Below, one piece after another: positions 3,238-25,337 of a stretch of 26,079 nucleotides of DNA (positions are counted from its first letter, which is position 1; each line of letters starts with the position of its first letter). Under the pieces are notes generated by a model, which saw only the letters and a program-made list of their open reading frames with translations, made no database searches and had not been told where the DNA came from. The DNA comes from a virus (lineage: Duplodnaviria > Heunggongvirae > Uroviricota > Caudoviricetes). The stretch is taken from positions 1-26,079 of the IMG/VR virus record IMGVR_UViG_2698536454_000020; one strand, 5' to 3'. A program made the position numbers and the translations under genes.

Positions 3238-3509
3238 GTATTCGTATTGAAATTGGCGAACGTTATGTCGTTACCAGTGACAGCTTTCAGTTTATTCTCC
3301 ACGAGAAAAAGAGAGCGGAAAGCGGTAAAAACGCCGGTCAGGAATGGCTGGCGGTGGTTGGTTATTACCCGAAATTAAGCCAGCTCGTTTCCGGCCTGAT
3401 GCATCACGATATTCTGACCGGAAGCGCAAAGTCTTTTGCTGATTTAAACGGGCAGGTTGAGCAACTCAGCAAGCGTTGTTCAGAGGCTTTTGGCTCATAT
3501 GGCCGTTAA
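3234..3509 (+). CDS. Hypothetical early protein (P2 orf83 position), 91 aa
   Basis: ORF track; ATGA overlap with the upstream gene; overlaps the A start by 11 nt. Confidence 0.5.
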   Translation: MSIRIEIGERYVVTSDSFQFILHEKKRAESGKNAGQEWLAVVGYYPKLSQLVSGLMHHDILTGSAKSFADLNGQVEQLSKRCSEAFGSYGR

Positions 3510-5778
3510 AGCCTCCGGGCGTTTTGTCCCTCCGTCAGCATTTGCCGCAGGCACCGGTAAGACGTTTACCGGTGCTTATGCATGGAACGCGCCACGCGAG
3601 GCCGTCGGGCGCGAAAGACCCCTTACACGTGACGAGATGCGTCAGGTGCAAGGTGTTTTATCCACGATTAACCGCCTGCCTTACTTTTTGCGTTCGCTGT
3701 TTACTTCACGCTATGACTACATCCGGCGCAATAAAAGCCCGGTGCACGGGTTTTATTTCCTCACATCCACTTTTCAGCGTCGTTTATGGCCGCGCATTGA
3801 GCGCGTGAATCAGCGCCATGAAATGAACACCGACGCGTCGTTACTGTTTCTGGCAGAGCGTGACCACTATGCGCGCCTGCCGGGAATGAATGACAAGGAG
3901 CTGAAAAAATTTGCCGCCCGTATCTCATCGCAGCTTTTCATGATGTATGAGGAACTCTGCGATGCCTGGGTGGATGCCCATGGCGAAAAAGAATCGCTGT
4001 TTACGGATGAGGCGCAGGCTCACCTGTATGGTCATGTTGCTGGCGCTGCACGTGCTTTCAATATTTCCCCGCTCTACTGGAAAAAATACCGTAAAGGACA
4101 GATGACCACGAGGCAGGCATATTCTGCCATTGCCCGCCTGTTTAACGATGAGTGGTGGACTCATCAGCTTAAAGGCCAGCGTATGCGCTGGCATGAGGCG
4201 TTACTGATTGCTGTCGGGGAGGTCAATAAAGACCGTTCTCCTTATGCCAGTAAACATGCCATTCGTGATGTGCGTGCACGCCGCCAGGCAAATCTGGAAT
4301 TTCTTAAATCGTGTGACCTTGAAAACAGGGAAACCGGCGAGCGCATCGACCTTATCAGTAAGGTGATGGGCAGTATTTCTAATCCTGAAATTCGCCGGAT
4401 GGAGCTGATGAACACCATCGCCGGAATTGAGCGTTACGCCGCCGCAGAGGGTGATGTGGGGATGTTTATCACGCTGACCGCGCCGTCAAAGTATCACCCG
4501 ACACGTCAGGTCGGAAAAGGCGAAAGTAAAACCGTCCAGCTAAATCACGGCTGGAACGATGAGGCATTTAATCCAAAGGATGCGCAGCGTTATCTCTGCC
4601 ATATCTGGAGCCTGATGCGCACGGCATTCAAGGATAATGATTTACAGGTCTACGGTTTGCGTGTCGTCGAGCCACACCACGACGGAACGCCGCACTGGCA
4701 TATGATGCTTTTTTGTCATCCACGCCAGCGTAACCAGATTATTGAAATCATGCGTCGCTATGCGCTCAAAGAGGATGGCGACGAAAGAGGAGCCGCGCGA
4801 AACCGTTTTCAGGCAAAACACCTTAACCGGGGCGGTGCTGCGGGATATATCGCGAAATACATCTCAAAAAACATCGACGGCTATGCACTGGATGGTCAGC
4901 TCGATAATGATACCGGTAGGCCGCTGAAAGACACAGCTGCGGCTGTTACCGCATGGGCGTCAACGTGGCGCATTCCGCAATTTAAAACGGTTGGTCTGCC
5001 GACAATGGGGGCTTACCGTGAACTACGCAAATTGCCTCGCGGCGTCAGCATTGCTGATGAGTTTGACGAGCGCGTCGAGGCTGCACGCGCCGCTGCAGAC
5101 AGTGGTGATTTTGCGTTGTATATCAGCGCGCAGGGCGGGGCAAATGTCCCGCGCGATTGTCAGACTGTCAGGGTCGCCCGTAGCCCGTCGGATGACGTTA
5201 ACGAGTACGAGGAAGAAGTCGAGAGAGTGGTCGGCATTTACGCGCCGCATCTCGGCGCGCGTCATATTCATATCACCAGAACGACGGACTGGCGCATTGT
5301 TCCGAAAGTGCCGGTCGTTGAGCCTTTGACTTTAAAAAGCGGCATCGCCGCGCCTCGGAGTCCTGTCAATAACTGTGGAAAGCTCACCGGTGGTGATACT
5401 TCGTTACCGGCTCCCACACCTTCTGAGCACGCCGCAGCAGTGCTTAATCTGGTTGATGACGGTGTTATTGAATGGAATGACCAGGAGGTCGTGAGGGCGC
5501 TCAGGGGCGCATTAAAACAAGGTCTGAGAAGACCAAACCGTCAGCAAAGAAACGGAAGCCCGTTAAAACAGCATGAAATGGCACCATCGGCCAGACTGAC
5601 CCGGTCAGAACGAATGCAAATTACCCGTATCCGCGTTGACCTTGCTCAGAACGGTATCAGGCCGCAGCGATGGGAGCTTGAGGCGCTGGCGCGTGGAGCA
5701 ATTGTAAATTACGACGGGAAAAAATTCACGTATCCAGTCGCTGATGAGTGGCGGGGATTCTCAGCAGTAATGGAGTGA
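3499..5778 (+). CDS. A: Rolling-circle replication initiator endonuclease (P2 gpA-like), about 759 aa from the ATG at 3499
   Basis: ORF track 3457..5778; start moved to 3499 (MAVKASGRFVPP...) to match the remembered gpA N-terminus; HUH-type motif PHWHMMLF and tyrosine motif GYIAKYISKN present. Confidence 0.88.
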   Translation: MAVKASGRFVPPSAFAAGTGKTFTGAYAWNAPREAVGRERPLTRDEMRQVQGVLSTINRLPYFLRSLFTSRYDYIRRNKSPVHGFYFLTSTFQRRLWPRIERVNQRHEMNTDASLLFLAERDHYARLPGMNDKELKKFAARISSQLFMMYEELCDAWVDAHGEKESLFTDEAQAHLYGHVAGAARAFNISPLYWKKYRKGQMTTRQAYSAIARLFNDEWWTHQLKGQRMRWHEALLIAVGEVNKDRSPYASKHAIRDVRARRQANLEFLKSCDLENRETGERIDLISKVMGSISNPEIRRMELMNTIAGIERYAAAEGDVGMFITLTAPSKYHPTRQVGKGESKTVQLNHGWNDEAFNPKDAQRYLCHIWSLMRTAFKDNDLQVYGLRVVEPHHDGTPHWHMMLFCHPRQRNQIIEIMRRYALKEDGDERGAARNRFQAKHLNRGGAAGYIAKYISKNIDGYALDGQLDNDTGRPLKDTAAAVTAWASTWRIPQFKTVGLPTMGAYRELRKLPRGVSIADEFDERVEAARAAADSGDFALYISAQGGANVPRDCQTVRVARSPSDDVNEYEEEVERVVGIYAPHLGARHIHITRTTDWRIVPKVPVVEPLTLKSGIAAPRSPVNNCGKLTGGDTSLPAPTPSEHAAAVLNLVDDGVIEWNDQEVVRALRGALKQGLRRPNRQQRNGSPLKQHEMAPSARLTRSERMQITRIRVDLAQNGIRPQRWELEALARGAIVNYDGKKFTYPVADEWRGFSAVME

Positions 5779-6043
5779 ACGTCGCCAGTTGCGAAAATTA
5801 TTTACAGGGGGCAGCGTTAAGCATCTAAAGATCTTGTTCTATGATTAGAATGTTTCCTCGTTGCACTCTCGTATAGTTATTTAATGGGAAGATGTACTCT
5901 ATATGTTGTGTTTTGGTGATAAATGAAGCCAAAGGAAGGAGATTTTGCTTGATTGATGGGCGCTCTTTGCTATACACCTTGTATTGAGAAGGAGAAGTAA
6001 TCAAGGATTAAGCTGGCTTTTGTCAAAAATCTGAAAAGCTTTT

Positions 6044-6073
6044 TTGACTGAATACGATAGCGAGTTGTACTAT
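6044..6073 (+). promoter_or_regulatory. Candidate sigma70 promoter for the island's first operon
   Basis: TTGACT (6044..6049), 18-bp spacer, TACTAT (6068..6073), about 35 bp upstream of the ATG at 6108. Confidence 0.35.
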
Positions 6074-6107
6074 TTGCGCCCTCAAAAGTAACCGGCGGCT
6101 GGGTAAA

Positions 6108-6482
6108 ATGGGGAAGCAAGGCAAAGGCAAAGGCAACAAAAATCAGGTTAAGGTTACGTGGGCTCAGGCGTGGCGGGATGTAATGATAAGAGCCATGTCT
6201 AATGGTCAGTTGATACCTATTACCATCAGTATTATTTTAATGATTGCTGCATGGAGGTTACCAAAAACTGACTTGTCCAATTTAGCCTTCTCTATTGTTG
6301 ATGGCTTTAAGGAGCATTCCTTGGTTGGTTGGGCTATCTCGGTAATAGTGGGTTTGGCTTGGTCTGCACATGCGCGAATCATGAGGCGCTGTTTTAGTTC
6401 CGAGGCACAGAGAATCGGTAACGAGAAAACAAAGTATCAACAAAGACAGACCACTCAAGCCTTGGGTACAAGTGATAAATAG
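6108..6482 (+). CDS. Small membrane protein, 124 aa, lysine-rich N-terminus and two predicted TM helices
   Basis: ORF track; hydrophobic stretches LIPITISIILMIAAW and LVGWAISVIVGLAWSA; low-GC island in the P2 tin/old hotspot slot. Confidence 0.55.
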   Translation: MGKQGKGKGNKNQVKVTWAQAWRDVMIRAMSNGQLIPITISIILMIAAWRLPKTDLSNLAFSIVDGFKEHSLVGWAISVIVGLAWSAHARIMRRCFSSEAQRIGNEKTKYQQRQTTQALGTSDK

Positions 6483-6502
6483 TTGTTTATTTAGGAGTTA
6501 TT

Positions 6503-7060
6503 ATGCTGACAGTGCTGTTTTATGTGCTGTTGGGTTTAGGCGCAGCACACTTCATTTACGAGCGAATCATTTTGCCGTCCATCCGACTTCATTATAGAAA
6601 CCAATTGTTTGCGCTTCGTGATGTCGCTAGGAGGAAAATCATTGATGGAGGTTCCGATACTTCCATGCAAGCGGCAACACTTGTGCATGACTCATTGAAT
6701 AACGCTATCAATAGATTGCATTTACTCACGTTGCCAAACAAATTTCGTGCTCAAAAGCGTATGGCAGAAAACCATGCAATAAGGCAGAAAATTCGGCGTG
6801 AGATAGATGTTTTCAAACGCTGTGATGATAGAGAAGTTGTTGATGTACTGTTTAAATCCGGTCGGATACTTGAAAATGTACTGTTATTCAATAGCTTAAT
6901 GTTATTGCTTTACATGTTTCCATTTGTCCTTGCTGTATGGTTCTGTGTTAGGGTCATAAAGACAGCAAGTAGTTTAGTACAGTGGGTCAAAGGAAGAGAT
7001 TTAGAGGAAGCTATAATGCTGCTTCCTGATACTCAGGTTGAAAAGGTTGTATACGCATAA
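6503..7060 (+). CDS. Membrane protein, 185 aa, N-terminal TM helix, central soluble region, C-terminal TM helix
   Basis: ORF track; AGGAG Shine-Dalgarno at 6493..6497; hydrophobic segments at residues about 2..18 and 128..150; 20 bp downstream of the preceding ORF. Confidence 0.6.
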   Translation: MLTVLFYVLLGLGAAHFIYERIILPSIRLHYRNQLFALRDVARRKIIDGGSDTSMQAATLVHDSLNNAINRLHLLTLPNKFRAQKRMAENHAIRQKIRREIDVFKRCDDREVVDVLFKSGRILENVLLFNSLMLLLYMFPFVLAVWFCVRVIKTASSLVQWVKGRDLEEAIMLLPDTQVEKVVYA

Positions 7061-7062
7061 AA

Positions 7063-7089
7063 ATCACCCCTTAGGGGGTGATTTTTTTA
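7063..7089 (+). terminator. Rho-independent terminator after the membrane-protein operon
   Basis: ATCACCCC-TTAG-GGGGTGAT perfect 8-bp stem followed by TTTTTTT, immediately after the stop at 7058..7060. Confidence 0.65.
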
Positions 7090-7255
7090 CATGACTTTTG
7101 ATTAGCTGACATTGTAAATCCGCATGTATCAGATGCATTGTTTTGCATGTGGAAATGGGTGTTTTCACTGCCAGCTATCGCTACATGTAGCAAAAACACG
7201 GGCTTAATAAGAAATCATTCTGCCATAAGGCATAACTTCCCCGCGTGCTCAGGTA

Positions 7256-7285
7256 TTGACGTCATAGATATGGATCTTTTTTAAT
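7256..7285 (+). promoter_or_regulatory. Candidate promoter for the TIR-like gene
   Basis: TTGACG (7256..7261), 17-18 bp spacer, TTTAAT-like -10; AAGG Shine-Dalgarno before the ATG at 7300. Confidence 0.3.
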
Positions 7286-7299
7286 CAAGGTATGGTATT

Positions 7300-8247
7300 A
7301 TGAAGATATTTATTAGTTGGTCAGGTCAGGACAGCCTGGAGATAGCAAAAGTATTACGGGATTGGATACCGAATGTTATTCAAGTAGCTGAGCCGTACGT
7401 ATCAGCGGAAGATATTGATAAAGGCACTCGCTGGGCGACTGATATATCAAAGGAACTTGATGACTCTTCTTATGGGATTATTTGCCTTACAAAAAATAAT
7501 ATTAATGCACCGTGGATAAATTTTGAGGCGGGTGCTTTAGGTAAAAAGGTTGATAAGAGCCGGGTTAGTCCTTTCTTGTTTAAAATTAAACCATCTGAGA
7601 TAACAGGCCCAATATTACAATTCCAGTATACTCGTTCGGATGATAAGAACGATATTTTGAAGTTGATGTTGTCAATAAATAATCAAGCAGGATTTTTGAC
7701 TGAAGAACGCTTAACTAAAGCTTTCGAGCAATGGTGGCCAAGTTTAGAGCGTGAGTTAGATAACATTCAAGATATTAACCCTGTAGATAAAGATTCCACT
7801 AAAAAAACAAAAGGTGATTCGACTTCTGAGATACAAAATCTTTCCAAAATTGTTGAAAGTTTGCTGGATATTAGCCGAACAAATCACCAATTATTGCGTG
7901 ATCCAGCATCATTATTGCCAGAAGAATATGTTAGCAAAATAATAAACAGGGAAGGGCGTAAAGAAACTGTTTTAAAAATTGTAGCTTCTGATTTATTATC
8001 CATGCATCATTCACTAATTCGTGTAAAAAGAAGATTTATTCGCCGTGGTATTGATGAAACATCTAGGAGCGAGTTAATTGAATCATTAAATAAAATGATA
8101 ATGGATTGTTCTAGAGTAATCGCTCACTTAGATAATTATTGTGGGGCTTCATCAAACAATATGTTCAATAGTGCGCTTAGATTGCGGACCAGAAATTTAA
8201 TTGACATGATGGATGAGGAGGATGCAGAACGGGATGAAATGGAATAA
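7300..8247 (+). CDS. TIR-like domain protein (N-terminal ~135 aa) fused to an unrecognised ~175-aa helical C-terminal domain; candidate anti-phage NADase or signal-generating protein
   Basis: N-terminus MKIFISWSGQDS and the block ICLTKNNINAPWINFEAG (W72, E76; GAG at 7525..7527) fit the bacterial TIR-like pattern (F-I-S-x-S/H start, [SA]-x-W-[CI]-x-x-E). Own promoter and terminator-bounded unit; low GC. Confidence 0.6.
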   Translation: MKIFISWSGQDSLEIAKVLRDWIPNVIQVAEPYVSAEDIDKGTRWATDISKELDDSSYGIICLTKNNINAPWINFEAGALGKKVDKSRVSPFLFKIKPSEITGPILQFQYTRSDDKNDILKLMLSINNQAGFLTEERLTKAFEQWWPSLERELDNIQDINPVDKDSTKKTKGDSTSEIQNLSKIVESLLDISRTNHQLLRDPASLLPEEYVSKIINREGRKETVLKIVASDLLSMHHSLIRVKRRFIRRGIDETSRSELIESLNKMIMDCSRVIAHLDNYCGASSNNMFNSALRLRTRNLIDMMDEEDAERDEME

Positions 8248-8297
8248 TCGATTTTGACTAATCATAAATAATTTTGCATATATAAACTTATAATGCC

Positions 8298-8320
8298 GCA
8301 GCCGCTATTTTTCAGCGGCT
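8298..8320. other. Hairpin (CAGCCGCT / AGCGGCTG stem) flanked by direct repeats CTTATAATG
   Basis: Read from sequence about 50 bp after the TIR-like gene stop; no clean T-run after the stem, so terminator function is uncertain. Confidence 0.3.
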
Positions 8321-8791
8321 GTATATCGCTTATAATGGGTATGTTATTTTTATTTTGATAAAATCATTAAAATTGTCGATGTTATATGAATGCACATGTA
8401 TTATTAATGTTAGAAGATTATGCCTGCTTACGGCTATTGTGCTGAATTCAACTATGAACGCATCAGTATTAAAATCGTTCCATGAAATGTTCTTCGTCTA
8501 CAGCAGATGATGGGCAACGAAAAAATGACGCTGAGTGAGTTGGTCGGGGAGAATTGTTAGAGGTATTTATGGAGTGGTTTAATAATATCGGTCAATCCTG
8601 AGTTGCAGCATCACATAGACGATAGGGAATCTCTCCAGTCGTTCTGGAATGGCAGCGTTGAACAACAAGCACAGCGAGGCGTTAGATGCCCATCAGATTG
8701 ACACAGAGGGTTTATGAATCGCTGGGATTTACTTAGTTTGAAAAATAATATATTTATATGTTTTTGTATTGTGTTTGTTAAGGAGTTTGGA

Positions 8792-8997
8792 TTGAAAAGA
8801 AAACTGATTTGTGTTATGGCTTTTTGGGGGCGTTGCTGGCTGGTTGTAATGAGAGTAATAAAAAAGAAGTTGAGGGTTGTATTGAAAGAGGTGTCCAATA
8901 TTTTATAGAGATTGGTTCTTACCCTAAATTAAGTGATGGGCGTGATGCTGTGAAAGTTGCTACTGAACGTTGTAATAGAACAATAACGGCTTTCTGA
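8792..8997 (+). pseudogene. Small lipoprotein gene (~70 aa) interrupted by a -1 frameshift in a T5G5 homopolymer run (8821..8830)
   Basis: AGGAG at 8781..8785 then TTG 8792; frame 2 gives MKRKLICVMAF..., frame 1 continues ...LGALLAGCNESNKK... to the stop at 8995..8997. One extra T would give a textbook lipoprotein signal peptide with LAGC lipobox. Confidence 0.4.
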
Positions 8998-8999
8998 TA

Positions 9000-9917
9000 A
9001 TGGATTATACGAGCTATATAATAGGGCAGCTTCAGGTTGAGGATATTATTGATGCAATTAAAGGCGTTAATAATACTAATGTCATAAAAGATTATGTGCT
9101 GCCTGTAGTATTACCAATTATATCTTCTGTGCTGAGTTACTTTATTGCAACTAGGTTGTTTTATCGGCAGGAGTACCTTAAAGCACAAAGAAGAAAGGTA
9201 AGCGTTGTAAATAAATGTATTTATGACTACTTTTCTGCAATGACAACGTTGTTGCAAATTAAAGGGAATTATTATGGTGGGGTAAGTATAAGTGAAAATC
9301 CTATCGAGAGGGCTTTAGCTTTTCCTGTTGTGGTTTTTTCTGGTGCTCCTCTATCATCAGATTTAAGTGAGTTGGCCTGTATATTGAGTCAAAAGGGAGT
9401 AGGGAATAATAGAGAGACAGCAAAGACTACTAACTGGGGGGATGCTTTTGCTGTTAGTGATATAGCAAGAAGGTTTAACAGCCTATTGGCTGCATTAAAT
9501 GTTAGGAATGATTTTGATGACACCTATAGAGGAATGATTATTGAATCAACAGGTTCACCTTTGCCTACGATGCGTTTTAAAAATGATGATATTGTTAATG
9601 CTATAGGTAGTAATAAGGCAGCTTATTACATTGATATTACTGAGCAAATAATGATTATGATAGATGTTTTGTTGCTTGATATTAATCTGTTGCTCAAAGA
9701 GTTGCCATTGTATGCTGAATCGCTGTTTGACAAAAGAGTAATGCAAGAAGATTCAGGGATTCTTAAATTCAATGATTTGCACGAACGTTTTCCTCTACTT
9801 ATGAAACCTGTAACGCCACCTTCGATTAAACTCATGTCTGATTATTTGGGGTACAGTGAAGATGAGATCTTACGACGCTATCCATACCCGTTCTTTAATA
9901 TGCATGATTGTGAATGA
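9000..9917 (+). CDS. Hypothetical membrane-anchored protein, 305 aa, one N-proximal TM helix, no recognisable domain
   Basis: ORF track; ATG overlaps the lipoprotein gene stop region (TGATAATG), implying co-transcription; hydrophobic segment VLPVVLPIISSVLSYFIAT; AT-rich codon usage. Confidence 0.6.
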   Translation: MDYTSYIIGQLQVEDIIDAIKGVNNTNVIKDYVLPVVLPIISSVLSYFIATRLFYRQEYLKAQRRKVSVVNKCIYDYFSAMTTLLQIKGNYYGGVSISENPIERALAFPVVVFSGAPLSSDLSELACILSQKGVGNNRETAKTTNWGDAFAVSDIARRFNSLLAALNVRNDFDDTYRGMIIESTGSPLPTMRFKNDDIVNAIGSNKAAYYIDITEQIMIMIDVLLLDINLLLKELPLYAESLFDKRVMQEDSGILKFNDLHERFPLLMKPVTPPSIKLMSDYLGYSEDEILRRYPYPFFNMHDCE

Positions 9918-10021
9918 ATGTGCATATGTCAGAAGCCGTTTTTATTGTCAGTTATCGTCAGTGCTGGCGCGCTCTTGGAGTGTTCATGCAACTGCATTAA
10001 AACCGCCCCACGAAGCGGGCG

Positions 10022-10040
10022 GGCGAGGCGGGGAAAGCAC
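10022..10040. other. Candidate cos site (P2-type 19-nt cohesive end GGCGAGGCGGGGAAAGCAC)
   Basis: Exact 19-mer present in a GC-rich gap between the island and portal gene Q, where cos lies in a P2 prophage; the cos sequence is recalled from memory, not searched. Confidence 0.5.
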
Positions 10041-10170
10041 TGCGCGCTGGCGGTGGTGATGATTGTCTGAGCGCGTCGTGATGGCGTTTAGATTGTGCGC
10101 CGGGGCGTTGGTGTGTCTGCGGGGTGTTTTGTACAGTGGCGAGCGTGTGAGGGCGTGATGACGGGGGTGT

Positions 10171-10192
10171 AAAAAAGCCGCCCGCAGGCGGC
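10171..10192 (-). terminator. Rho-independent terminator downstream of Q on the minus strand
   Basis: Plus strand shows AAAAAA then GCCGCC-CGCA-GGCGGC; on the minus strand this is a GC hairpin followed by TTTTTT, immediately after the Q stop at 10198..10200. Confidence 0.55.
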
Positions 10193-10197
10193 GATGT

Positions 10198-11232
10198 TCA
10201 GCCGTTGTCAGTGTCCAGTGAGTAGTTTTTAAAGCGGATGACCTCCTGACCGAGCCAGCCGTTTATTTCCCGAATCCTGTCCTGTAACGGGATAAGTTCA
10301 TTGCGGACAAAGACCTTTGCCACTTTCTCAATATCGCCCAGCGACCCGACGTTTTCCGGCTTGCCACCCATCAACTGAAAGGGGATGCGGTGCGCGTCCA
10401 GCAGGTCAGCGGCGCTGGCTTTTTTGATATTAAAAAAATCGTCCTTCGTGGCCACTTCACTGAGCGGGATAATTTTAATGCCGTCGGCTTTTCCCTGTGG
10501 GGCATAGAGAAACAGGTTTTTAAAGTTATTGCGGCCTTTCGACTTCACCATGTTTTCGCGGAGCATTTCGATATCGTTGCGATCCTGCACGGCATCAGTG
10601 ACGTACATGATGTATCCGGCATGTGCGCCGTTTTCGTAATACTTGCGGCGGAACAGCGTGGCCGACTCATTCAGCCAGGCCGAGTTAAGGGCGCTGAGAT
10701 ATTCCGGCAGGCCGTACAGCTCCTGATTAATATCCGGCTCCAGCAGGTGAAACACGGAGCCGGGCGTGAAAGGTGTCGGCTCGTTGAAGGACGGCACCCA
10801 CCAGTAAACATCCTCCTCCACCCCACGGCGGGTATATTTTGCCGGTGAGGTTTCCAGTCTGATGACCTTACCGGTGGTGCTGTATCGCTTTTCCAGAAAC
10901 GCATTACCGAACACCAGAAAATCCAGCACAAAGCGGCTGAAATCCTGTTGCGAAAGCCACGGGTGCGGGATAAACGTTGAGGCCAGAATATTACGTTTGA
11001 CGTAAATCGGGGAGCTGTGATGCACGGCAGCACGAAGGCTTTTTGCCAGCCCGGTAAAGCTGACTGGTGGCTCATACCATCTGCCGTTACTGATGCACTC
11101 GACGTAATCCAGAATGTCACGGCGGTCGAGTACCGGCACCGGCTCGCCAAAGGTGAATGCCTCCATTTTCGGGGCGCTGGCGGTCATTGTTTTTGCCGCT
11201 GGTCGCGGTGTTTTCCCTTTTTTCTTGCTCAT
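10198..11232 (-). CDS. Q: Portal protein (P2 gpQ-like), 344 aa
   Basis: 344-aa ORF, same length as P2 gpQ; adjacent to and co-oriented with the large terminase, divergent from O. Confidence 0.88.
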   Translation of the reverse strand: MSKKKGKTPRPAAKTMTASAPKMEAFTFGEPVPVLDRRDILDYVECISNGRWYEPPVSFTGLAKSLRAAVHHSSPIYVKRNILASTFIPHPWLSQQDFSRFVLDFLVFGNAFLEKRYSTTGKVIRLETSPAKYTRRGVEEDVYWWVPSFNEPTPFTPGSVFHLLEPDINQELYGLPEYLSALNSAWLNESATLFRRKYYENGAHAGYIMYVTDAVQDRNDIEMLRENMVKSKGRNNFKNLFLYAPQGKADGIKIIPLSEVATKDDFFNIKKASAADLLDAHRIPFQLMGGKPENVGSLGDIEKVAKVFVRNELIPLQDRIREINGWLGQEVIRFKNYSLDTDNG

Positions 11233-13177: not shown

Positions 13178-14032
13178 ATGGCAAAAAAAGTCTCAAAATT
13201 CTTTCGTATCGGCGTTGAGGGTGACACCTGTGACGGGCGTGTCATCAGTGCGCAGGATATTCAGGAAATGGCCGAAACCTTTGACCCGCGAGTCTATGGT
13301 TGCCGCATTAACCTGGAACATCTGCGCGGCATCCTGCCTGACGGTATTTTTAAGCGTTATGGCGATGTGGTCGAACTGAAGGCCGAAAAGATTGACGATG
13401 ATTCGGCGCTGAAAGGCAAATGGGCGCTGTTTGCGAAAATCACCCCGACCGATGACCTTATCGCGATGAACAAGGCCGCGCAGAAGGTCTACACCTCAAT
13501 GGAAATTCAGCCGAACTTTGCCAACACCGGCAAATGTTATCTGGTGGGGCTGGCCGTCACCGATGACCCGGCAAGCCTCGGCACGGAATACCTGGAATTC
13601 TGCCGCACGGCAAAACACAACCCCCTGAACCGCTTCAAATTAAGCCCTGAAAACCTGATTTCAGTGGCAACGCCTGTTGAGCTGGAATTTGAAGACCTGC
13701 CTGAAACCGTGTTCACCGCCCTGACCGAAAAGGTGAAGTCCATTTTTGGCCGCAAACAGGCCAGCGATGATGCCCGTCTGAATGACGTGCATGAAGCGGT
13801 GACCGCTGTTGCTGAACATGTGCAGGAAAAACTGAGCGCCACTGAGCAGCGCCTCGCGGAGATGGAAACCGCCTTTTCCGCACTTAAGCAGGAGGTGACT
13901 GACAGGGCGGATGAAACCAGCCAGGCATTCACCCGCCTGAAAAACAGTCTCGACCACACCGAAAGTCTGACCCAGCAGCGCCGCAGCAAGGCCACCGGTG
14001 GTGGCGGTGACGCCCTGATGACGAACTGCTGA
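13178..14032 (+). CDS. O: Capsid scaffolding protein (P2 gpO-like), 284 aa from the ATG at 13178
   Basis: ORF track 13112..14032; internal start MAKKVSKFFRIGVEGD... matches the remembered gpO N-terminus and length. Confidence 0.85.
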   Translation: MAKKVSKFFRIGVEGDTCDGRVISAQDIQEMAETFDPRVYGCRINLEHLRGILPDGIFKRYGDVVELKAEKIDDDSALKGKWALFAKITPTDDLIAMNKAAQKVYTSMEIQPNFANTGKCYLVGLAVTDDPASLGTEYLEFCRTAKHNPLNRFKLSPENLISVATPVELEFEDLPETVFTALTEKVKSIFGRKQASDDARLNDVHEAVTAVAEHVQEKLSATEQRLAEMETAFSALKQEVTDRADETSQAFTRLKNSLDHTESLTQQRRSKATGGGGDALMTNC

Positions 14033-17519: not shown

Positions 17520-17945
17520 ATGAAGAAATTATCCCTTTCACTGATGCTGAACGTGTCGCTGGCGCTGATGCTGGCACTGTCCCTGATTTACCCGCAGAGC
17601 GTGGCCGTCAGTTTTGTCGCCACCTGGGCGATTCTGGCGACGGTTATCTGTGTGGTTGCCGGTGGTGTCGGCGTGTATGCCACGGAGTATGTGCTGGAAC
17701 GCTACGGGCGGGAGCTTCCGCCGGAATCGCTGGCCGTGAAGATTGTCACGTCGCTGTTTTTGCAGCCGGTGCCGTGGCGCAGACGGGCGGTGGCTCTGGT
17801 GGTGATGGTGGCGACGTTTATCTCGCTGGTCGCTGCCGGGTGGATTTTTACCGCGCTGATTTATCTCGTGGCGTCGGTGTTCTTCCGGCTGATACGTACG
17901 GCCTGCCGTCAGCGTTTTGAGGGGCGGGAACCATGTCAAAGCTGA
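17520..17945 (+). CDS. lysA: Lysis accessory membrane protein LysA-like, 141 aa
   Basis: 141-aa hydrophobic ORF following the endolysin; synteny with P2 lysA. Confidence 0.72.
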   Translation: MKKLSLSLMLNVSLALMLALSLIYPQSVAVSFVATWAILATVICVVAGGVGVYATEYVLERYGRELPPESLAVKIVTSLFLQPVPWRRRAVALVVMVATFISLVAAGWIFTALIYLVASVFFRLIRTACRQRFEGREPCQS

Positions 17946-18358
17946 TGATTGTGATGGTTGTGCTGTTATCGCTGGCGGTGGCGGGGCTGTTTCTGGTGAA
18001 GCATGAAAACGCCAGCCTGCGCGCCTCGCTGGACAGGGCGAACAACGTCGCCAGCGGGCAGCAGACGACCATCACCATGCTGCAAAATCAGCTTCATGTT
18101 GCCATCACCAGGGCAGACAAAAACGAGCTGGCGCAGGTGGCACTGCGTCAGGAACTGGAGAACGCCGCGAAGCGTGAAGCACAGCGCGAGAAAACCATCA
18201 CGAGGTTACTTAATGAAAACGAAGATTTTCGCCGCTGGTACGGTGCTGACCTGCCTGATGCTGTGCGCCGGTTGCACCAGCGCCCCGCCTGCACTGACGC
18301 CAGTGATTGTCCCCAACGCCTGCCCGAAAGTGAGCCTTTGCCCGATGCCGGGCAGTGA
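17933..18358 (+). CDS. lysB: LysB-like inner-membrane spanin (Rz-like), 141 aa
   Basis: N-terminal TM segment then coiled-coil-like region; synteny with P2 lysB. Confidence 0.72.
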   Translation: MSKLMIVMVVLLSLAVAGLFLVKHENASLRASLDRANNVASGQQTTITMLQNQLHVAITRADKNELAQVALRQELENAAKREAQREKTITRLLNENEDFRRWYGADLPDAVRRLHQRPACTDASDCPQRLPESEPLPDAGQ

Positions 18359-18503
18359 CCCGGAGACGAACGGCGATTTAAGTGCCGATATCCGGCAGCT
18401 TGAGAACGCGCTGGCACGCTGTGCCAGCCAGGTAAAAATGATTAAACACTGTCAGGACGAAAACGATGCTCAAACCCGACAGCCTGCGCAGGGCGCTGAC
18501 TGA
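18213..18503 (+). CDS. lysC: LysC-like outer-membrane lipoprotein spanin (Rz1-like), 96 aa, embedded out of frame in lysB
   Basis: ATG at 18213 inside ORF 18003..18503; MKTKIFAAGTVLTCLMLCAGC has a lipoprotein signal with lipobox; proline-rich mature part. Confidence 0.7.
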   Translation: MKTKIFAAGTVLTCLMLCAGCTSAPPALTPVIVPNACPKVSLCPMPGSDPETNGDLSADIRQLENALARCASQVKMIKHCQDENDAQTRQPAQGAD

Positions 18504-19378: not shown

Positions 19379-19444
19379 TTGTGCCATTCCCGACACCTCA
19401 TCGTCACATTGCCGCCGGTATGACCCGGCGGCATCCTTCCCGTT

Positions 19445-20080
19445 ATGAACACTCTCGCAAATATTCAGGAACTCGCGCGCGCACTGCGCAACATGATCCG
19501 CACCGGCATTATCGTCGAAACCGACCTTAACGCCGGTCGCTGCCGTGTGCAGACTGGCGGCATGTGCACCGACTGGCTTCAGTGGCTGACCCATCGTGCC
19601 GGGCGTTCGCGCACATGGTGGGCACCTTCCGTGGGGGAACAGGTGCTGATTCTGGCCGTGGGCGGTGAACTTGACACGGCGTTTGTTCTGCCGGGGATTT
19701 ATTCCGGCGATAACCCCGCGCCGTCTGCGTCGGCGGATGCCCTGCATATCCGTTTCCCTGACGGGGCGGTGATTGAGTATGAACCCGAAACCAGTGCACT
19801 CACGGTAAGCGGAATTAAAACGGCCAGCGTGACGGCTTCTGATTCTGTTACTGCCACGGTGCCGGTGGTCATGGTGAAAGCATCAACCCGCATCACCCTG
19901 GACACACCGGAGGTGGTCTGCACCAACAGGCTGATTACCGGCACGCTGGAAGTGCAGAAGGGCGGGACGATGCGCGGCAACATTGAACACACCGGCGGTG
20001 AACTCTCATCAAACGGTAAGGTACTGCATACCCATAAACACCCCGGCGACAGCGGCGGCACAACCGGGAGTCCTCTATGA
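19445..20080 (+). CDS. V: Baseplate spike/hub protein V-like, 211 aa
   Basis: 211-aa ORF, same length as P2 gpV; starts a new operon after a 66-bp gap. Confidence 0.83.
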   Translation: MNTLANIQELARALRNMIRTGIIVETDLNAGRCRVQTGGMCTDWLQWLTHRAGRSRTWWAPSVGEQVLILAVGGELDTAFVLPGIYSGDNPAPSASADALHIRFPDGAVIEYEPETSALTVSGIKTASVTASDSVTATVPVVMVKASTRITLDTPEVVCTNRLITGTLEVQKGGTMRGNIEHTGGELSSNGKVLHTHKHPGDSGGTTGSPL

Positions 20081-21337: not shown

Positions 21338-21941
21338 TTCGCGACTGCTGCCGACCGGCTCATCGCCGCTTGAAGTCGCCGCCGCAAAAGCCTGTGCGGA
21401 AATTGAAAAAACGCCGGTCAGTATTCGTGAGCTGTGGAACCCGGATACCTGTCCGGCAAATCTGCTGCCGTGGCTGGCGTGGTCATTTTCGGTTGACCGC
21501 TGGGATGATAAGTGGCCGGAAGCGACAAAACGCGCTGTTATCCGCGATGCGTATTTCATTCACTGCCATAAGGGCACTATAGGCGCAATCCGGCGTGTGG
21601 TGGAGCCGCTCGGCTATCTGATTGAGGTGAGGGAGTGGTGGCAGCTCAACGAGGAGCCGGGGACGTTCCGCATCGTTGTTGGCGTGCTTGAGCAGGGTAT
21701 TACCGAGGAAATGTATCAGGAGCTGGAGCGCCTCGTTGCTGATGCAAAACCGGCAAGCCGCCATCTGACGGGACTGGCTATCAGTTTAAGTACAACCGGC
21801 AACATTTTTGCCGGTGCAGGATGCTATCACGGCGACGCCCTGACGGTTTATCCCTACACCCCGGAGGCCATTATTGTCGGAGGGGATTATTTCCCGGCCT
21901 CGGCCATTCATTTAATTGATAACCTGAGAGTAAACGCATGA
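21330..21941 (+). CDS. I: Baseplate/tail protein I-like, 203 aa
   Basis: ORF overlapping the J stop and the H start; synteny. Its 3' 234 bp lie inside the long inverted repeat. Confidence 0.78.
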   Translation: MSDSRLLPTGSSPLEVAAAKACAEIEKTPVSIRELWNPDTCPANLLPWLAWSFSVDRWDDKWPEATKRAVIRDAYFIHCHKGTIGAIRRVVEPLGYLIEVREWWQLNEEPGTFRIVVGVLEQGITEEMYQELERLVADAKPASRHLTGLAISLSTTGNIFAGAGCYHGDALTVYPYTPEAIIVGGDYFPASAIHLIDNLRVNA

Positions 21942-22783
21942 CAGTGAAATACTACGCCATTCTGACTAATCAGGGCGCAGCACGGCTGGCTAACGCGACG
22001 ATGCTCGGCAGTAAGCTGAATCTGACGCAAATGGCAGTTGGTGATGCGAATGGTGTCTTGCCGACACCAGACCCGGCACAGACAAAACTGATTAACCAGA
22101 AACGCATCGCGCCGCTGAATCTTCTGAGTGTTGACCCGAACAACCAGAGCCAGATTATTGCGGAGCAAATCATCCCTGAGAACGAGGGCGGATTCTGGAT
22201 CCGTGAGATTGGGCTTTATGATGATGAAGGCGTACTCATTGCGGTGGCGAACTGCCCGGAAACGTACAAACCGCAGTTGCAGGAAGGCAGTGGTCGTACC
22301 CAGACTATCCGCATGATTCTGGTTGTCACGAATACCGAAGCTATTACGCTGAAAATCGACCCGTCGGTGGTACTGGCGACCCGTAAATATGTGGATGATG
22401 AAGTCCTGGAATTAAGGCTGTATGTGGATGACCAGATGAGCAAACACATTGCCGCACAGGACCCTCATACCCAGTATGCACAGAAACATAATCCGACATT
22501 TACCGGAGAACCAAAAGCGCCGACGCCTGCCGCAGGAAATAACACCACGCGGATTGCGACCACTGCGTTTGTACAGGCCGCTATTACCGCTCTGATTAAC
22601 GGTGCGCCTGACACGCTGGACACACTGAAAGAAATTGCCGCGGCCATTAACAATGACCCGAAATTCAGCACCACCATTAACAATGCGCTGGCAGGTAAAC
22701 AACCGCTGGACAATACGCTGACTCATTTGAGCGGAAAGGATGTTGCCGGTCTTCTCGCATACCTTGGTTTGGGAGAAGGTGCT
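21708..22783. repeat. Left arm of a 1076-bp near-perfect inverted repeat (3' end of I, constant part of H, site 1)
   Basis: Reverse-complement identity with 24492..25567 (coordinates sum to 47275); confirmed by identical ORFs on opposite strands (22412..22726 - and 24549..24863 +; 21908..22168 - and 25107..25367 +). Confidence 0.85.
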
Positions 22784-23221
22784 CCAGCTATTGGCGTTCC
22801 GTTCTTCTGGCCGTCCGCTGCAATGCCAAATACTGTAATCGACAGCTGGTCCAGTATGGTGTTTTTGAAGTTCAACGGCGCGAAATTCTCTGCCACTGAT
22901 TATCCTGTGCTGGCGAAAGTATTTCCTTCGCTGGTATTACCTGAAGCCCGCGGTGATTTCATTCGTATCTGGGATGACGGGCGAGGTACAGACGGTGGTC
23001 GCGAATTATTAAGCTGGCAGGCAGCTACAAACTTTTCTCAGTTTGCCGGGAATATAGGCGGAGGTGCGGGACACGCAATTAACTTTCATGATGGCATCGC
23101 CGGAAATCAGCCAGGATTTTCACGATTTAATTTAACCAGTAACTCTGTGGGTGATGGTGTGAATTTTGTTGCTGTCAGACCGCGAAATATTGCATTTAAC
23201 TTTCTGGTGAGGGCTAAATAA
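21938..23221 (+). CDS. H: Tail fibre protein H-like, 427 aa: constant N-terminal part (to about 22765) plus variable C-terminal cassette Hv1
   Basis: ORF track; N-terminal domain typical of P2/Mu-type tail fibres; a hix/gix-like crossover site lies in frame at 22752..22777. Confidence 0.82.
   Translation: MTVKYYAILTNQGAARLANATMLGSKLNLTQMAVGDANGVLPTPDPAQTKLINQKRIAPLNLLSVDPNNQSQIIAEQIIPENEGGFWIREIGLYDDEGVLIAVANCPETYKPQLQEGSGRTQTIRMILVVTNTEAITLKIDPSVVLATRKYVDDEVLELRLYVDDQMSKHIAAQDPHTQYAQKHNPTFTGEPKAPTPAAGNNTTRIATTAFVQAAITALINGAPDTLDTLKEIAAAINNDPKFSTTINNALAGKQPLDNTLTHLSGKDVAGLLAYLGLGEGAPAIGVPFFWPSAAMPNTVIDSWSSMVFLKFNGAKFSATDYPVLAKVFPSLVLPEARGDFIRIWDDGRGTDGGRELLSWQAATNFSQFAGNIGGGAGHAINFHDGIAGNQPGFSRFNLTSNSVGDGVNFVAVRPRNIAFNFLVRAK
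22752..22777 (+). other. hix/gix-like 26-bp recombination site 1 (TTCTCGCATACCTTGGTTTGGGAGAA) inside H
   Basis: Imperfect palindrome around a central TT; resembles remembered hixL TTCTTGAAAACCAAGGTTTTTGATAA and gixR; sits exactly at the constant/variable boundary of H. Confidence 0.6.
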
Positions 23222-23814
23222 TGAAACCTGTTTTTGATGAAAATGGGCTGGCTACAGTGCCGGGCGATATGCGTTGTTTTTATTATGATGCTGAAACATC
23301 TGAGTATACGGGCTGGTCTGATGAATATATTAATACTGGCGTAAGTATGCCCGCCTGTTCCACTGGTATTGACCCGGGCGAAAACATTCCGGGGAAAGTG
23401 GCAGTATTTACGGGTAAGGAATGGAGCTATGAAGAAGACCATCGCAATGAGACTGTTTACTCAACAGAAAATGGCGCAGCTGTTACAGTGGATTATATCG
23501 GTGCCATCAAAAACGGTTATGTCACGCTTTCACCGTTAACGCCATATGATAAATGGGATGGTGAGAAATGGGTGACAGATACTGAGGCACAGCATAACGC
23601 CGCAGTAGAAGCAGCAGAAGCACAGCGCCAGTCACTGATTGATGCAGCAATGGCTTCCATTAGTCTGATTCAGCTGAAATTACAGGCCGGACGGAAACTG
23701 ACTCAGGCAGAAACAACCCGACTTAACGCCGTGCTGGATTACATTGACGCGGTGACGGCAACAGATACCAGCACCGCGCCGGATGTCATCTGGCCTGAAC
23801 TGCCGGAGGCGTAG
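23221..23814 (+). CDS. G: Tail fibre assembly protein (Tfa/gpG/Mu-U family), 197 aa
   Basis: Immediately follows H; C-terminal ...[13 protein letters not shown] motif typical of tail-fibre assembly chaperones. Confidence 0.78.
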
Positions 23815-24214
23815 GCCATTCAATATCGGGTGCTGTTGAAGTATCAACACGCATCAGCAGCACACGGTATTTCTTCCATTCGGTGAGAGTTGAAGTTTCT
23901 TCATCAGTTGCGATATCAGCATCAACAGCATCCTGACGCCAGGATATTTCACTGTCAGCTTTTTCCCGTAATTGGGATTTTTTAACTTCAGTAATAGCTA
24001 TTAATTCCTTTTTGGTCGGCTGAGGAATATCTATCAGTGCTGGTTTTCCATTCAGTGTTCCAATCTGTTTTCCTGGTGGAATATCCATAAATAACTTTTT
24101 ATGTTCTTCCTCACTGACTATTACACCATCATCAGGCCACAGACCTGATGCCTCAAATTTTTCTTTCTCCGATATGGGGAAAAAGCCATTTGCTTTAGCG
24201 CTCCATACGTACAT
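23786..24214 (-). CDS. Second, convergent tail fibre assembly protein (alternative Tfa), 142 aa
   Basis: Minus-strand ORF; C-terminus ...[20 protein letters not shown] shares the Tfa motif; 3' ends of the two tfa genes overlap at 23786..23814. Confidence 0.72.
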
Positions 24215-24511
24215 ATCAATACCCCACCGCTATAATGTCCACATTAAATCCCCCGGGACCTGCCTGCCAGATGCTGGCCCCTGTTAATGATTTTGTTTGA
24301 TGAACAACCGCCACATTTGCTGGCGATTGTGTTTCAGTTGTTACAGTACCGATATCATTCCAGTTAATTGAGATGGAATAGTTCGTTGTTGTAAACGACC
24401 GTGGGAAAGTTATGTGTCTTACATTGGTGCCAACAGGAAATCCAAGATAAACACGCTGAATTATCATTCCTCCAGGTAACATAACCCAGTTAGCACCTTC
24501 TCCAAAACCAA
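24122..24511. repeat. First copy of a 390-bp direct repeat (5' end of the minus-strand tfa gene, Hv2 cassette, half of the crossover site)
   Basis: Identical to 25569..25958 (offset 1447 bp); the copies diverge at the centre of the crossover sites. Confidence 0.85.
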
Positions 24512-25337
24512 GGTATGCGAGAAGACCGGCAACATCCTTTCCGCTCAAATGAGTCAGCGTATTGTCCAGCGGTTGTTTACCTGCCAGCGCATTGTTAATG
24601 GTGGTGCTGAATTTCGGGTCATTGTTAATGGCCGCGGCAATTTCTTTCAGTGTGTCCAGCGTGTCAGGCGCACCGTTAATCAGAGCGGTAATAGCGGCCT
24701 GTACAAACGCAGTGGTCGCAATCCGCGTGGTGTTATTTCCTGCGGCAGGCGTCGGCGCTTTTGGTTCTCCGGTAAATGTCGGATTATGTTTCTGTGCATA
24801 CTGGGTATGAGGGTCCTGTGCGGCAATGTGTTTGCTCATCTGGTCATCCACATACAGCCTTAATTCCAGGACTTCATCATCCACATATTTACGGGTCGCC
24901 AGTACCACCGACGGGTCGATTTTCAGCGTAATAGCTTCGGTATTCGTGACAACCAGAATCATGCGGATAGTCTGGGTACGACCACTGCCTTCCTGCAACT
25001 GCGGTTTGTACGTTTCCGGGCAGTTCGCCACCGCAATGAGTACGCCTTCATCATCATAAAGCCCAATCTCACGGATCCAGAATCCGCCCTCGTTCTCAGG
25101 GATGATTTGCTCCGCAATAATCTGGCTCTGGTTGTTCGGGTCAACACTCAGAAGATTCAGCGGCGCGATGCGTTTCTGGTTAATCAGTTTTGTCTGTGCC
25201 GGGTCTGGTGTCGGCAAGACACCATTCGCATCACCAACTGCCATTTGCGTCAGATTCAGCTTACTGCCGAGCATCGTCGCGTTAGCCAGCCGTGCTGCGC
25301 CCTGATTAGTCAGAATGGCGTAGTATTTCACTGTCAT
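24216..25337 (-). CDS. Alternative tail fibre gene (inverted copy of the H constant part fused to variable cassette Hv2), 373 aa
   Basis: Minus-strand ORF; the first 27x residues are identical to H, diverging right after the crossover site; the nucleotide sequence is the reverse complement of 21938..22783. Confidence 0.65.
24498..24523 (+). other. hix/gix-like recombination site 2 (TTCTCCAAAACCAAGGTATGCGAGAA), inverted relative to site 1
   Basis: Reverse complement of site 1 with one mismatch; lies at the Hv2/constant boundary. Confidence 0.6.

Follow-up and report, generated by a model that had tools for sequence, protein, structure and literature searches.

We analysed a 26,079-nucleotide (nt) stretch of DNA from a virus of the Caudoviricetes (IMG/VR record IMGVR_UViG_2698536454_000020; the whole stretch is called the window here), and in particular the AT-rich accessory island that lies between its replication gene A and its cos site. 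In a blastn comparison, phage P2 (NC_001895) matched the window with 96.8% identity as far as position 5780, the end of gene A, and the match was picked up again in cosR, at 9993-10040. What has been replaced is therefore the segment 5781-9992, a little more than the block at 5779-9917 delimited by an earlier description made from the nucleotides alone (the sequence-only reading). The 19-nt cohesive-end sequence of P2 was found in one exact copy, with 0 expected by chance, and past it the portal gene Q and the terminase gene P, both on the minus strand, encoded products with 98.8-100% amino acid (aa) identity to those of P2. The island thus belongs to the cargo of the P2 hotspot, a slot defined in PMC9122126, lying between a gpA homologue and cos plus portal with old and tin replaced. 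Its GC content was 0.376 (37.6%) compared to 0.532 (53.2%) for the rest of the window, and the GC content at third codon positions (GC3) was 0.25-0.46 in its five open reading frames (ORFs) compared to 0.55-0.70 in A, Q and P. No counterpart of P2 Orf91, Tin or Old was detected in the whole window by tblastn (best E = 0.03, at unrelated places), and an Rfam scan of window positions 5500-10300 gave no match. The sequence-only reading had described a flanking gene order like that of P2, a block of five ORFs without resemblance to orf91, tin or old, and a higher AT content with distinct codon usage; the gpA, cos and gpQ matches, the tblastn result and the calculated GC and GC3 values agree with this, and all five ORFs are present on the plus strand. 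The features of the island and its surroundings are listed in the table.

Features of the island, its flanks, the corresponding slot in other phages, and the tail-fibre region (positions refer to the window unless a locus is named)
Feature	Position	Strand	Basis or remark
AT-rich accessory island, gpA-cos hotspot, in place of P2 orf91-tin-old	5781..9992	.	P2 homology limits and GC
Stretch equivalent to the pFD240 insert, validated AC1 system	5843..8633	+	primer mapping
ORF1, 124 aa, '2TM' membrane protein of Rst_2TM_1TM_TIR	6108..6482	+	PADLOC PDLC02978 '2TM-TIR', PHROG 33772
ORF2, 185 aa, '1TM' membrane protein	6503..7060	+	PADLOC PDLC02977 '1TM-TIR', PHROG 24550
Intrinsic terminator closing ORF1-ORF2	7059..7086	+	12-bp perfect stem, 4-nt loop, then T7/U7
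ORF3, 315 aa, TIR-domain protein	7300..8247	+	Pfam TIR_2, PADLOC PDLC03016 'TIR-TM'
Hairpin after ORF3, possible weak terminator	8299..8321	+	8-9 bp GC-rich stem
Decayed relic, 3' part of a small gene (68-77 aa)	8488..8640	+	~70% nucleotide identity, frame-breaking gaps
ORF4, small lipoprotein gene, frameshifted here	8792..8997	+	PHROG 32041 (function unknown)
ORF5, 305 aa, single-pass membrane protein, membrane segment at about residues 33-51	9000..9917	+	PHROG 21267
Replication gene A, left flank	3499..5778	+	97.4% aa identity to P2 gpA, residues 1-761
P2 cos, 19-nt cohesive-end sequence, right hotspot edge	10022..10040	+	exact match, annotated cosR of NC_001895
Portal gene Q, right flank	10198..11232	-	98.8% aa identity to P2 gpQ
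DUF3850, small gene, ORF4, ORF5	gpA-portal slot		loci L032-L034
DUF3850, small gene, ORF4, ORF5 and a 333-aa gene	gpA-portal slot		locus L002
ORF4, ORF5, 433-aa gene	gpA-portal slot		locus L003; ORF5 57% identical
ORF4-ORF5 pair as sole cargo, E. albertii	gpA-portal slot		locus L009; 53% identical
ORF4-ORF5 pair as sole cargo, E. coli CP058063	gpA-portal slot		locus L028
H-like tail-fibre gene, copy 1	21938-23221	+	
G-like gene, copy 1	23221-23814	+	
H-like tail-fibre gene, copy 2	25337-24216	-	
G-like gene, copy 2	24214-23786	-	

Profile searches identified the first three ORFs. The '2TM' model of PADLOC matched ORF1 over residues 1-124 of 124 (E = 2.2e-58), the '1TM' model matched ORF2 over residues 1-184 of 185 (E = 2.7e-75), and the TIR component model matched ORF3 over its full length (E = 2.3e-118); residues 3-113 of ORF3 also matched Pfam TIR_2 (E = 4.7e-10, 40.5 bits, cutoff 28). 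A clear hydrophobic segment is present at residues 33-51 of ORF1, with a second, weaker one beyond it as judged by eye, and in ORF2 such segments span residues 1-19 and 131-149. A scan for such segments found none in ORF3, which therefore appears to be a soluble TIR protein. Its TIR part spans residues 1 to ~115, the C-terminal extension of ~180 aa had no family match, and a search of the full-length protein by sequence against solved structures yielded nothing useful. The three genes are adjacent, all on the plus strand, and in the order 2TM-1TM-TIR seen in phage AC1. Judged by these matches, ORFs 1-3 are the 2TM + 1TM + TIR system (Rst_2TM_1TM_TIR in DefenseFinder) that was discovered in AC1 and named by Rousset et al. 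(2022; PMC9122126).

Escherichia phage P2_AC1 aligned with the whole block (100% of its length) at 99.7% identity. The window differs from this phage by an in-frame deletion of 6 nt in ORF1, by the lack of one T in an intergenic T-run (at 8346), and by 5 substitutions. The length difference in ORF1, at 6117, falls in a GCAAAG/GKG tandem repeat near the N-terminus, in which AC1 and E. coli 01G17CRGN001 each have one unit more than the window. According to Rousset et al. (2022; PMC9122126), E. coli C lysogenic for AC1 is resistant to lambda and LF82_P8, and the system cloned alone (pFD240) gives E. coli C protection from P2 as well as from these two phages. The primers used for pFD240 (Table S2 of PMC9122126) mapped exactly to window positions 5843-5868 and 8609-8633, and hence delimit the validated fragment given in the table. 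The equivalent of the active clone ends 159 nt before ORF4 and excludes ORFs 4 and 5. Protection was demonstrated with the AC1 copy, and the window allele is near-identical to it by alignment. The expectation of the sequence-only reading that this variable slot carries anti-phage cargo is thus confirmed by experiments on ORFs 1-3 in a 99.7% identical phage, and the island as a finding is already known: it is, within a few substitutions, the type example of a published system in a published hotspot. DNA of ORFs 1-3 is rare (of 5426 complete E. coli genomes, 14 carry it), and a survey preprint counts Rst_2TM_1TM_TIR among the systems undetected in its genome set. A hypothetical protein of the lambdoid phage mEp390 (JQ182729.1, 33766-34218) shared 41% identity with the TIR domain of ORF3 over residues 1-150 (E = 7e-31).

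The spacer between ORF3 and ORF4 is not empty, and contains the decayed relic of a small gene. The intact gene, which is annotated as hypothetical, follows the DUF3850/orf91 homologue of P2-type prophages in ~336 other complete E. coli genomes; in the window, stop codons break all three frames. From about 8642 onwards, and over ORF4-ORF5, the island was highly identical (97%) to the TIR-less prophage of E. coli MS 16-3. Alignments of this kind indicate that the relic is the mark of a junction between two cassettes. A comparison of slot occupants across P2-type prophages, as had been proposed, was run, and at least five other arrangements of the P2-type hotspot proved to contain ORF4-ORF5 but no TIR genes. 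Among the neighbours of the pair in these arrangements, the 433-aa protein (L003, 1808-3109) had weak similarity to MauJ (Pfam) and DzbB (PADLOC, E = 2e-4), and the 333-aa protein (L002, 8646-9647) had no match in PADLOC. We conclude, with a probability of roughly 0.85, that the cos-proximal slot of this P2-type prophage holds two independent cassettes, ORF1-ORF3 (cassette 1) and ORF4-ORF5 (cassette 2), with the roles proposed below. The sequence-only reading had taken the TIR-like protein, membrane proteins and lipoprotein together as an undescribed system, and had suggested profile searches as a check. PADLOC recognised ORFs 1-3 as defence genes and Pfam the TIR domain of ORF3, and neither gave a significant match for ORFs 4 and 5. 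The claim of an undescribed combination is not supported, since ORFs 1-3 are a described system whose clone stops before ORF4, ORF4-ORF5 occur without TIR genes, and the lipoprotein gene is frameshifted here.

This frameshift was apparent on comparison with intact relatives, in which the ORF4 product reads (M)KRKLICVMAFWGALLAGC/NES..., with a mature peptide of ~49 aa containing two conserved Cys. The signal peptide of these relatives combines an N-region rich in K/R with a hydrophobic core and a lipobox (LLAGC, LLVGC or LLSGC), as in the lipoprotein signal MKRKLICVMAFFGALLVGC. In the window, an AAGGAG at 8781-8786 lies six bases before the TTG start at 8792 (ATG in MS 16-3), and no real start codon reaches the lipobox, so that ORF4 as it stands here does not qualify as a lipoprotein. 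Positions 8821-8830 read T5G5, compared to T5G6 or T7G4 in intact relatives; a reading frame opened at TTG 8792 departs from that of the lipobox at the G5 run and ends with a stop at 8908. The 62-aa ORF that begins at TTG 8809 is the orphaned downstream part, giving MCYGFLGALLAGC without the charged N-region, and this apparent lipoprotein ORF is the product of a 1-nt deletion in a longer gene. The G5 allele is common to the window, the inducible phage P2_AC1, E. coli M21816 and one IMG/VR contig, whereas of the 14 island-bearing complete E. coli genomes, 13 have an intact ORF4 (G6). E. coli D7 is an example of a strain with G6. We rejected a sequencing error, because four independent assemblies have G5, and also programmed -1 frameshifting at the G-run, because GCU UUU UGG GGG CGU is not an X XXY YYZ slippery site. 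The length variation of the T-run and G-run could represent plain decay or a slippage-prone on/off tract.

Searches with ORF4 in Pfam, NCBIfam and PADLOC returned nothing significant, and a word-indexed search returned homologues in 5 clusters. Two of the homologues have Asp at position +2, the classical inner-membrane retention signal of lipoproteins. The lipoprotein partner was found only beside close ORF5 relatives in Escherichia P2-type prophages. An ORF4-like lipoprotein with the conserved motifs CIERG...YFKEIGSYP...ATERCNRT.TAF was also seen on a high-GC contig (L030, 466-666), where no ORF5 relative was called on the 1.7 kb available; the small ORF4-like lipoprotein domain may be a family of its own.

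ORF5 was 100% identical to the AC1 protein and belongs to PHROG 21267 (function unknown), matching profile positions 1-291 of 291 with E = 1.4e-149. Pfam, NCBIfam and PADLOC gave no significant match to ORF5. A word-indexed search returned 2 ORF5 clusters and at least 4 with the family profile, and a search with an alignment of close relatives yielded one genome locus and two near-identical viral contigs. It was an exhaustive HMMER scan of 1.84 billion representatives that showed the family, with 171 at E <= 1e-3 and 79 at E <= 1e-10; it thus comprises at least 171 clusters at 50% identity. Most of the top-ranked relatives are 280-320 aa long and 22-29% identical in near full-length alignments. 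All 58 sampled relatives matched PHROG 21267 with no other family recurring, and their matches in Pfam, NCBIfam and PADLOC were confined to single members (best E = 1e-4 to 4e-3). The family profile matched nothing when compared by sequence with solved structures, and these searches identified neither a specific fold nor a specific sequence relative for ORF5. An ORF5-like protein of a lambdoid contig had no match among isolated phage genomes, and the literature searched for the RefSeq accessions, PHROG identifiers and P2-like lipoprotein exclusion contained nothing relevant.

Residues P35, L84, K88, Y91, P101 and R104 are invariant in the family, and N71, R169, E215 and D222 are nearly so. The AlphaFold (AF2) model of ORF5, made with the family alignment, is confident (pLDDT 88.3, pTM 0.81). 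It has a short N-terminal helix, a membrane helix running into a long stalk (residues 28-95), and two more long helices at 149-184 and 204-242; together these seem to build a helical bundle. The tail at the N-terminus carries a net acidic charge, and when Lys and Arg were counted in the 15 residues on either side of the membrane helix, more were found after it than before it in 49 of the 58 members, and never fewer. This positive-inside bias predicts an N-out topology for ORF5, with the bundle in the cytoplasm.

The neighbourhoods of ORF5 relatives were inspected on a handful of loci in IMG/VR contigs. Relatives were found in the gpA-portal slot of other P2-type phages (L015, L017), in the S-V tail-gene slot that holds orf30 in P2 (L024), between lambda-type tail genes I and J (L018-L023), and beside an integrase (L025). 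In one locus (L014) AbiH lies directly upstream of the relative, and PDC-S42, a PADLOC candidate, precedes it by a few more genes; in another (L012) an ApeA-HEPN protein lies directly beside the relative; and in a third (L015) a CBASS cyclase with a 4TM effector follows after ~2.3 kb, still within the P2-type slot. On a metagenome contig the relative follows hsdM-hsdS of a type I restriction-modification system, and in the window the defence neighbour of ORF5 is the TIR system itself. No lipoprotein gene was seen directly upstream of the distant relatives inspected. This placement is consistent with a cargo gene that stands alone and serves defence or exclusion.

We also looked for transcription signals. 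The hairpin after ORF2 folded with -17.8 kcal/mol (z = -6.3), and none of 200 shuffled sequences folded as well; a pattern scan for terminators had missed it. With such a strong terminator after ORF2, ORF3 is most likely transcribed separately. The hairpin after ORF3 (-15.9 kcal/mol) had a z of only -1.4 and no U-run behind it, and folding detected no hairpin after ORF5. Promoter-like hexamers occurred at background level (17 found, 15.1 expected in shuffled sequence). Promoter activity is supported indirectly, in that the published clone, which began at the equivalent of 5843, held native upstream sequence and was active. The three transcription units proposed by the sequence-only reading are therefore upheld for the terminator after ORF2, and lose support at the unremarkable ORF3 hairpin, at the end of ORF5 and in the promoter hexamers.

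For cassette 1, a mechanism can be proposed. Glutamate E76 of ORF3 (W72-I-N-F-E76) aligned with the Glu of 'WTNYE' in AbTir and of 'WCLDE' in AtTIR, in weak alignments to PDB entries (E ~0.5-1). The WxxxE glutamate is the catalytic residue of AbTir and of the plant protein AtTIR, which would make E76 the putative catalytic Glu of ORF3. On infection, the soluble TIR protein would cleave NAD+ and either generate a nucleotide signal that switches on both small membrane proteins or act by its own NAD+ depletion; by either route the infected cell would no longer support phage growth. The first route corresponds to the model of Rousset et al. (2022; PMC9122126), in which a nucleotide messenger made by the TIR protein activates the membrane proteins.

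Cassette 2 would be a separately mobile module consisting of a small lipoprotein facing the periplasm and a single-pass inner-membrane protein, ORF5, whose short N-terminus would face the periplasm and whose helical bundle would lie in the cytoplasm. At the inner membrane it might exclude incoming phages, by blocking genome entry or by an abortive infection triggered at the membrane. Because of the envelope location, the recurrent placement in exclusion slots and the defence-gene neighbours, we favour membrane-level exclusion of this kind as the role of cassette 2, tentatively and at somewhat less than an even chance. A more specific proposal, which we offer as a possibility with the odds against it, combines several elements: ORF5 would be the founding example of a phage-exclusion family, PHROG 21267, whose members detect or block genome entry at the inner membrane and act as stand-alone cargo; the Escherichia/Salmonella P2-type branch would have recruited the ORF4 lipoprotein as a partner; and the one-G frameshift in ORF4 could reflect decay or a G-tract switch. 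The start codon of ORF5 lies 3 nt past the ORF4 stop (TGAtaATG), with no evident ribosome-binding site, and expression of ORF5 may suffer from the frameshift. Given the frameshift and the lack of an obvious ribosome-binding site for ORF5, cassette 2 is probably weakened or inactive in the window.

Several points weigh against two independent cassettes with these roles. The TIR genes are always accompanied by ORF4-ORF5 in complete E. coli genomes (14/14), and ORF4-ORF5 may have a supporting role for them. The lipoprotein of the window type has Asn at +2, which makes its membrane location uncertain; the topology of ORF5 is a prediction from charge bias only; and the neighbourhood evidence, coming from a handful of loci, is anecdotal and carries no statistical enrichment. 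For cassette 1, the text of PMC9122126 reports no single-gene deletions, NADase assay or signal molecule. The constant co-occurrence in these 14 genomes, together with the adjacency, common strand and common low GC of the genes, could be taken to mean that the five ORFs act as a single new defence system, one that requires the lipoprotein and ORF5 in addition to the TIR protein and both membrane proteins. The five-gene arrangement is indeed shown in Table S5A of Rousset et al., although the text of that paper describes and tests three genes only (PMC9122126). Since the 14 islands are 99.5-99.9% identical, however, their co-occurrence most likely reflects one recent lineage. The three-gene clone (5843-8633) reproduced the protection conferred by the lysogen, AC1 itself has the frameshifted ORF4, and a single system is further contradicted by the TIR-less arrangements and by the gene relic between its two parts. 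The clone, these arrangements and the relic largely refute one five-gene system, which we consider highly improbable. Within cassette 1, the roles could be reversed relative to the published model, the TIR protein being the killing effector by NAD+ depletion and the membrane proteins its sensors or anchors. Many bacterial TIR proteins are NADase effectors, neither ORF1 nor ORF2 matched a known nucleotide-binding domain in Pfam, and the ~180-aa extension of ORF3 could mediate activation or oligomerisation. Small membrane proteins are, on the other hand, common effectors in CBASS, Pycsar and type II Thoeris. The signalling model is the one favoured by Rousset et al. (2022; PMC9122126). We regard such a reversal as a real possibility, but not the probable one.

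For cassette 2, the main rival to phage exclusion is that ORF4-ORF5 are lysogenic-conversion cargo of another kind, serving the envelope, stress tolerance or host interaction from a permissive slot. It would account for the finding that neither ORF5 nor any of 57 family members matched a PADLOC defence model, and for the ORF4-like lipoprotein that stands alone at L030. According to Rousset et al. (PMC9122126), partition systems and a cytolethal distending toxin are examples of cargo without a defence role in the P2 hotspot. Conversion cargo is rather unlikely, given that ORF5 relatives occupy several prophage slots, beside AbiH or ApeA-HEPN and near CBASS or type I restriction-modification genes, and that in some phages the pair is the only cargo of a slot dominated by exclusion genes. 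A small Cys-bearing lipoprotein next to an N-terminally anchored protein with long helices also has a superficial likeness to a spanin pair that fuses membranes in lysis. The window, however, has its own P2 spanin genes lysB/lysC (17933-18500, 96-97% identity), ORF4-ORF5 lie outside the lysis cassette with a gene order reversed relative to known spanin pairs, and ORF5, at ~300 aa, is twice the usual length with its large domain predicted to be cytoplasmic. Moreover, most ORF5 relatives have no lipoprotein partner, and the two ORF4 homologues with Asp at +2 would stay in the inner membrane, while the necessary destination of an outer spanin is the outer membrane. The pair thus lacks the characteristics of spanins, and we rejected this candidate, whose likelihood we regard as negligible.

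Phage exclusion at the membrane remains our preferred reading of cassette 2. Cassette 1 opens no new question, and the window adds to it a natural allele with the 6-nt deletion in ORF1. ORF4-ORF5 are separable and were left out of the published clone. The ORF5 family is sizeable and unannotated, has a fold that is confident but uninformative, and recurs in cargo slots beside defence genes, which makes ORF5 a candidate for a new membrane-level exclusion function. With its ORF4 frameshifted, the copy of cassette 2 in AC1 and the window is probably unsuitable for testing this. The dissection into two cassettes, the relic, the ORF4 frameshift shared with AC1 and the recognition of the ORF5 family were not found in the literature and libraries searched.

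Some observations were made elsewhere in the window. The int region (1-1753) matched P2 at the nucleotide level over a short stretch only (80% over 140 nt), and the C repressor/cox region had no nucleotide match to P2. Going by these comparisons, the window phage is probably of a different immunity type from P2 and possibly of a different integration specificity. P2 has a second accessory slot, occupied by orf30, that separates tail genes S and V; in the window it is empty (19380-19445), with P2 positions 9369 and 10308 falling 64 nt apart. Two convergent tail-fibre cassettes are present at 21938-25337 and coincide with an AT-rich dip at 22750-24500. The N-terminal part of P2 H matched both H-like copies (40% and 36% aa identity), and P2 nt 13561-13714 matched both fibre copies in opposite orientations. 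These cassettes could be a duplicated or invertible host-range module.

In relation to known systems, the island shares with P2 old/tin/orf91 the genomic position, the low GC and the role of non-essential exclusion cargo, whereas sequence similarity is absent; of the phages with orf91-type cargo, the window retains only a decayed piece of the small gene that follows the orf91 homologues. The Rst_2TM_1TM_TIR system of AC1 has the same three genes in the same order and in the same gpA-cos slot. Thoeris, which combines a ThsB TIR sensor with an effector (membrane-spanning in type II), likewise has a TIR gene beside separate effector genes, and is the model invoked by Rousset et al. for the AC1 system (PMC9122126). 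Cassette 1 nevertheless matched no PADLOC Thoeris model, neither ORF1 nor ORF2 shows a recognisable signal-binding domain of the SLOG or Macro type, and ORF3 has the extra C-terminal extension of ~180 aa.

The closest known systems also include four-helix-bundle sensor domains, such as those of the chemoreceptors Tar/Tsr and of the histidine kinases TorS and QseE (the latter with the lipoprotein QseG), and DUF3829. No profile match was found to the known exclusion families Cor, Llp, Imm and Sie; ORF4 and ORF5 matched only PHROG families of unknown function, 32041 and 21267 being the best and the others weaker. Envelope exclusion proteins of phages include Llp of T5, Cor of phi80 and N15, Ltp of TP-J34, gp15 of HK97, SieA of P22, and Imm and Sp of T4. 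On general knowledge of these proteins, ORF4 and ORF5 are similar to them in being AT-rich accessory envelope genes in variable slots, and ORF5 differs from receptor-masking lipoproteins in that its large domain is predicted to face the cytoplasm.

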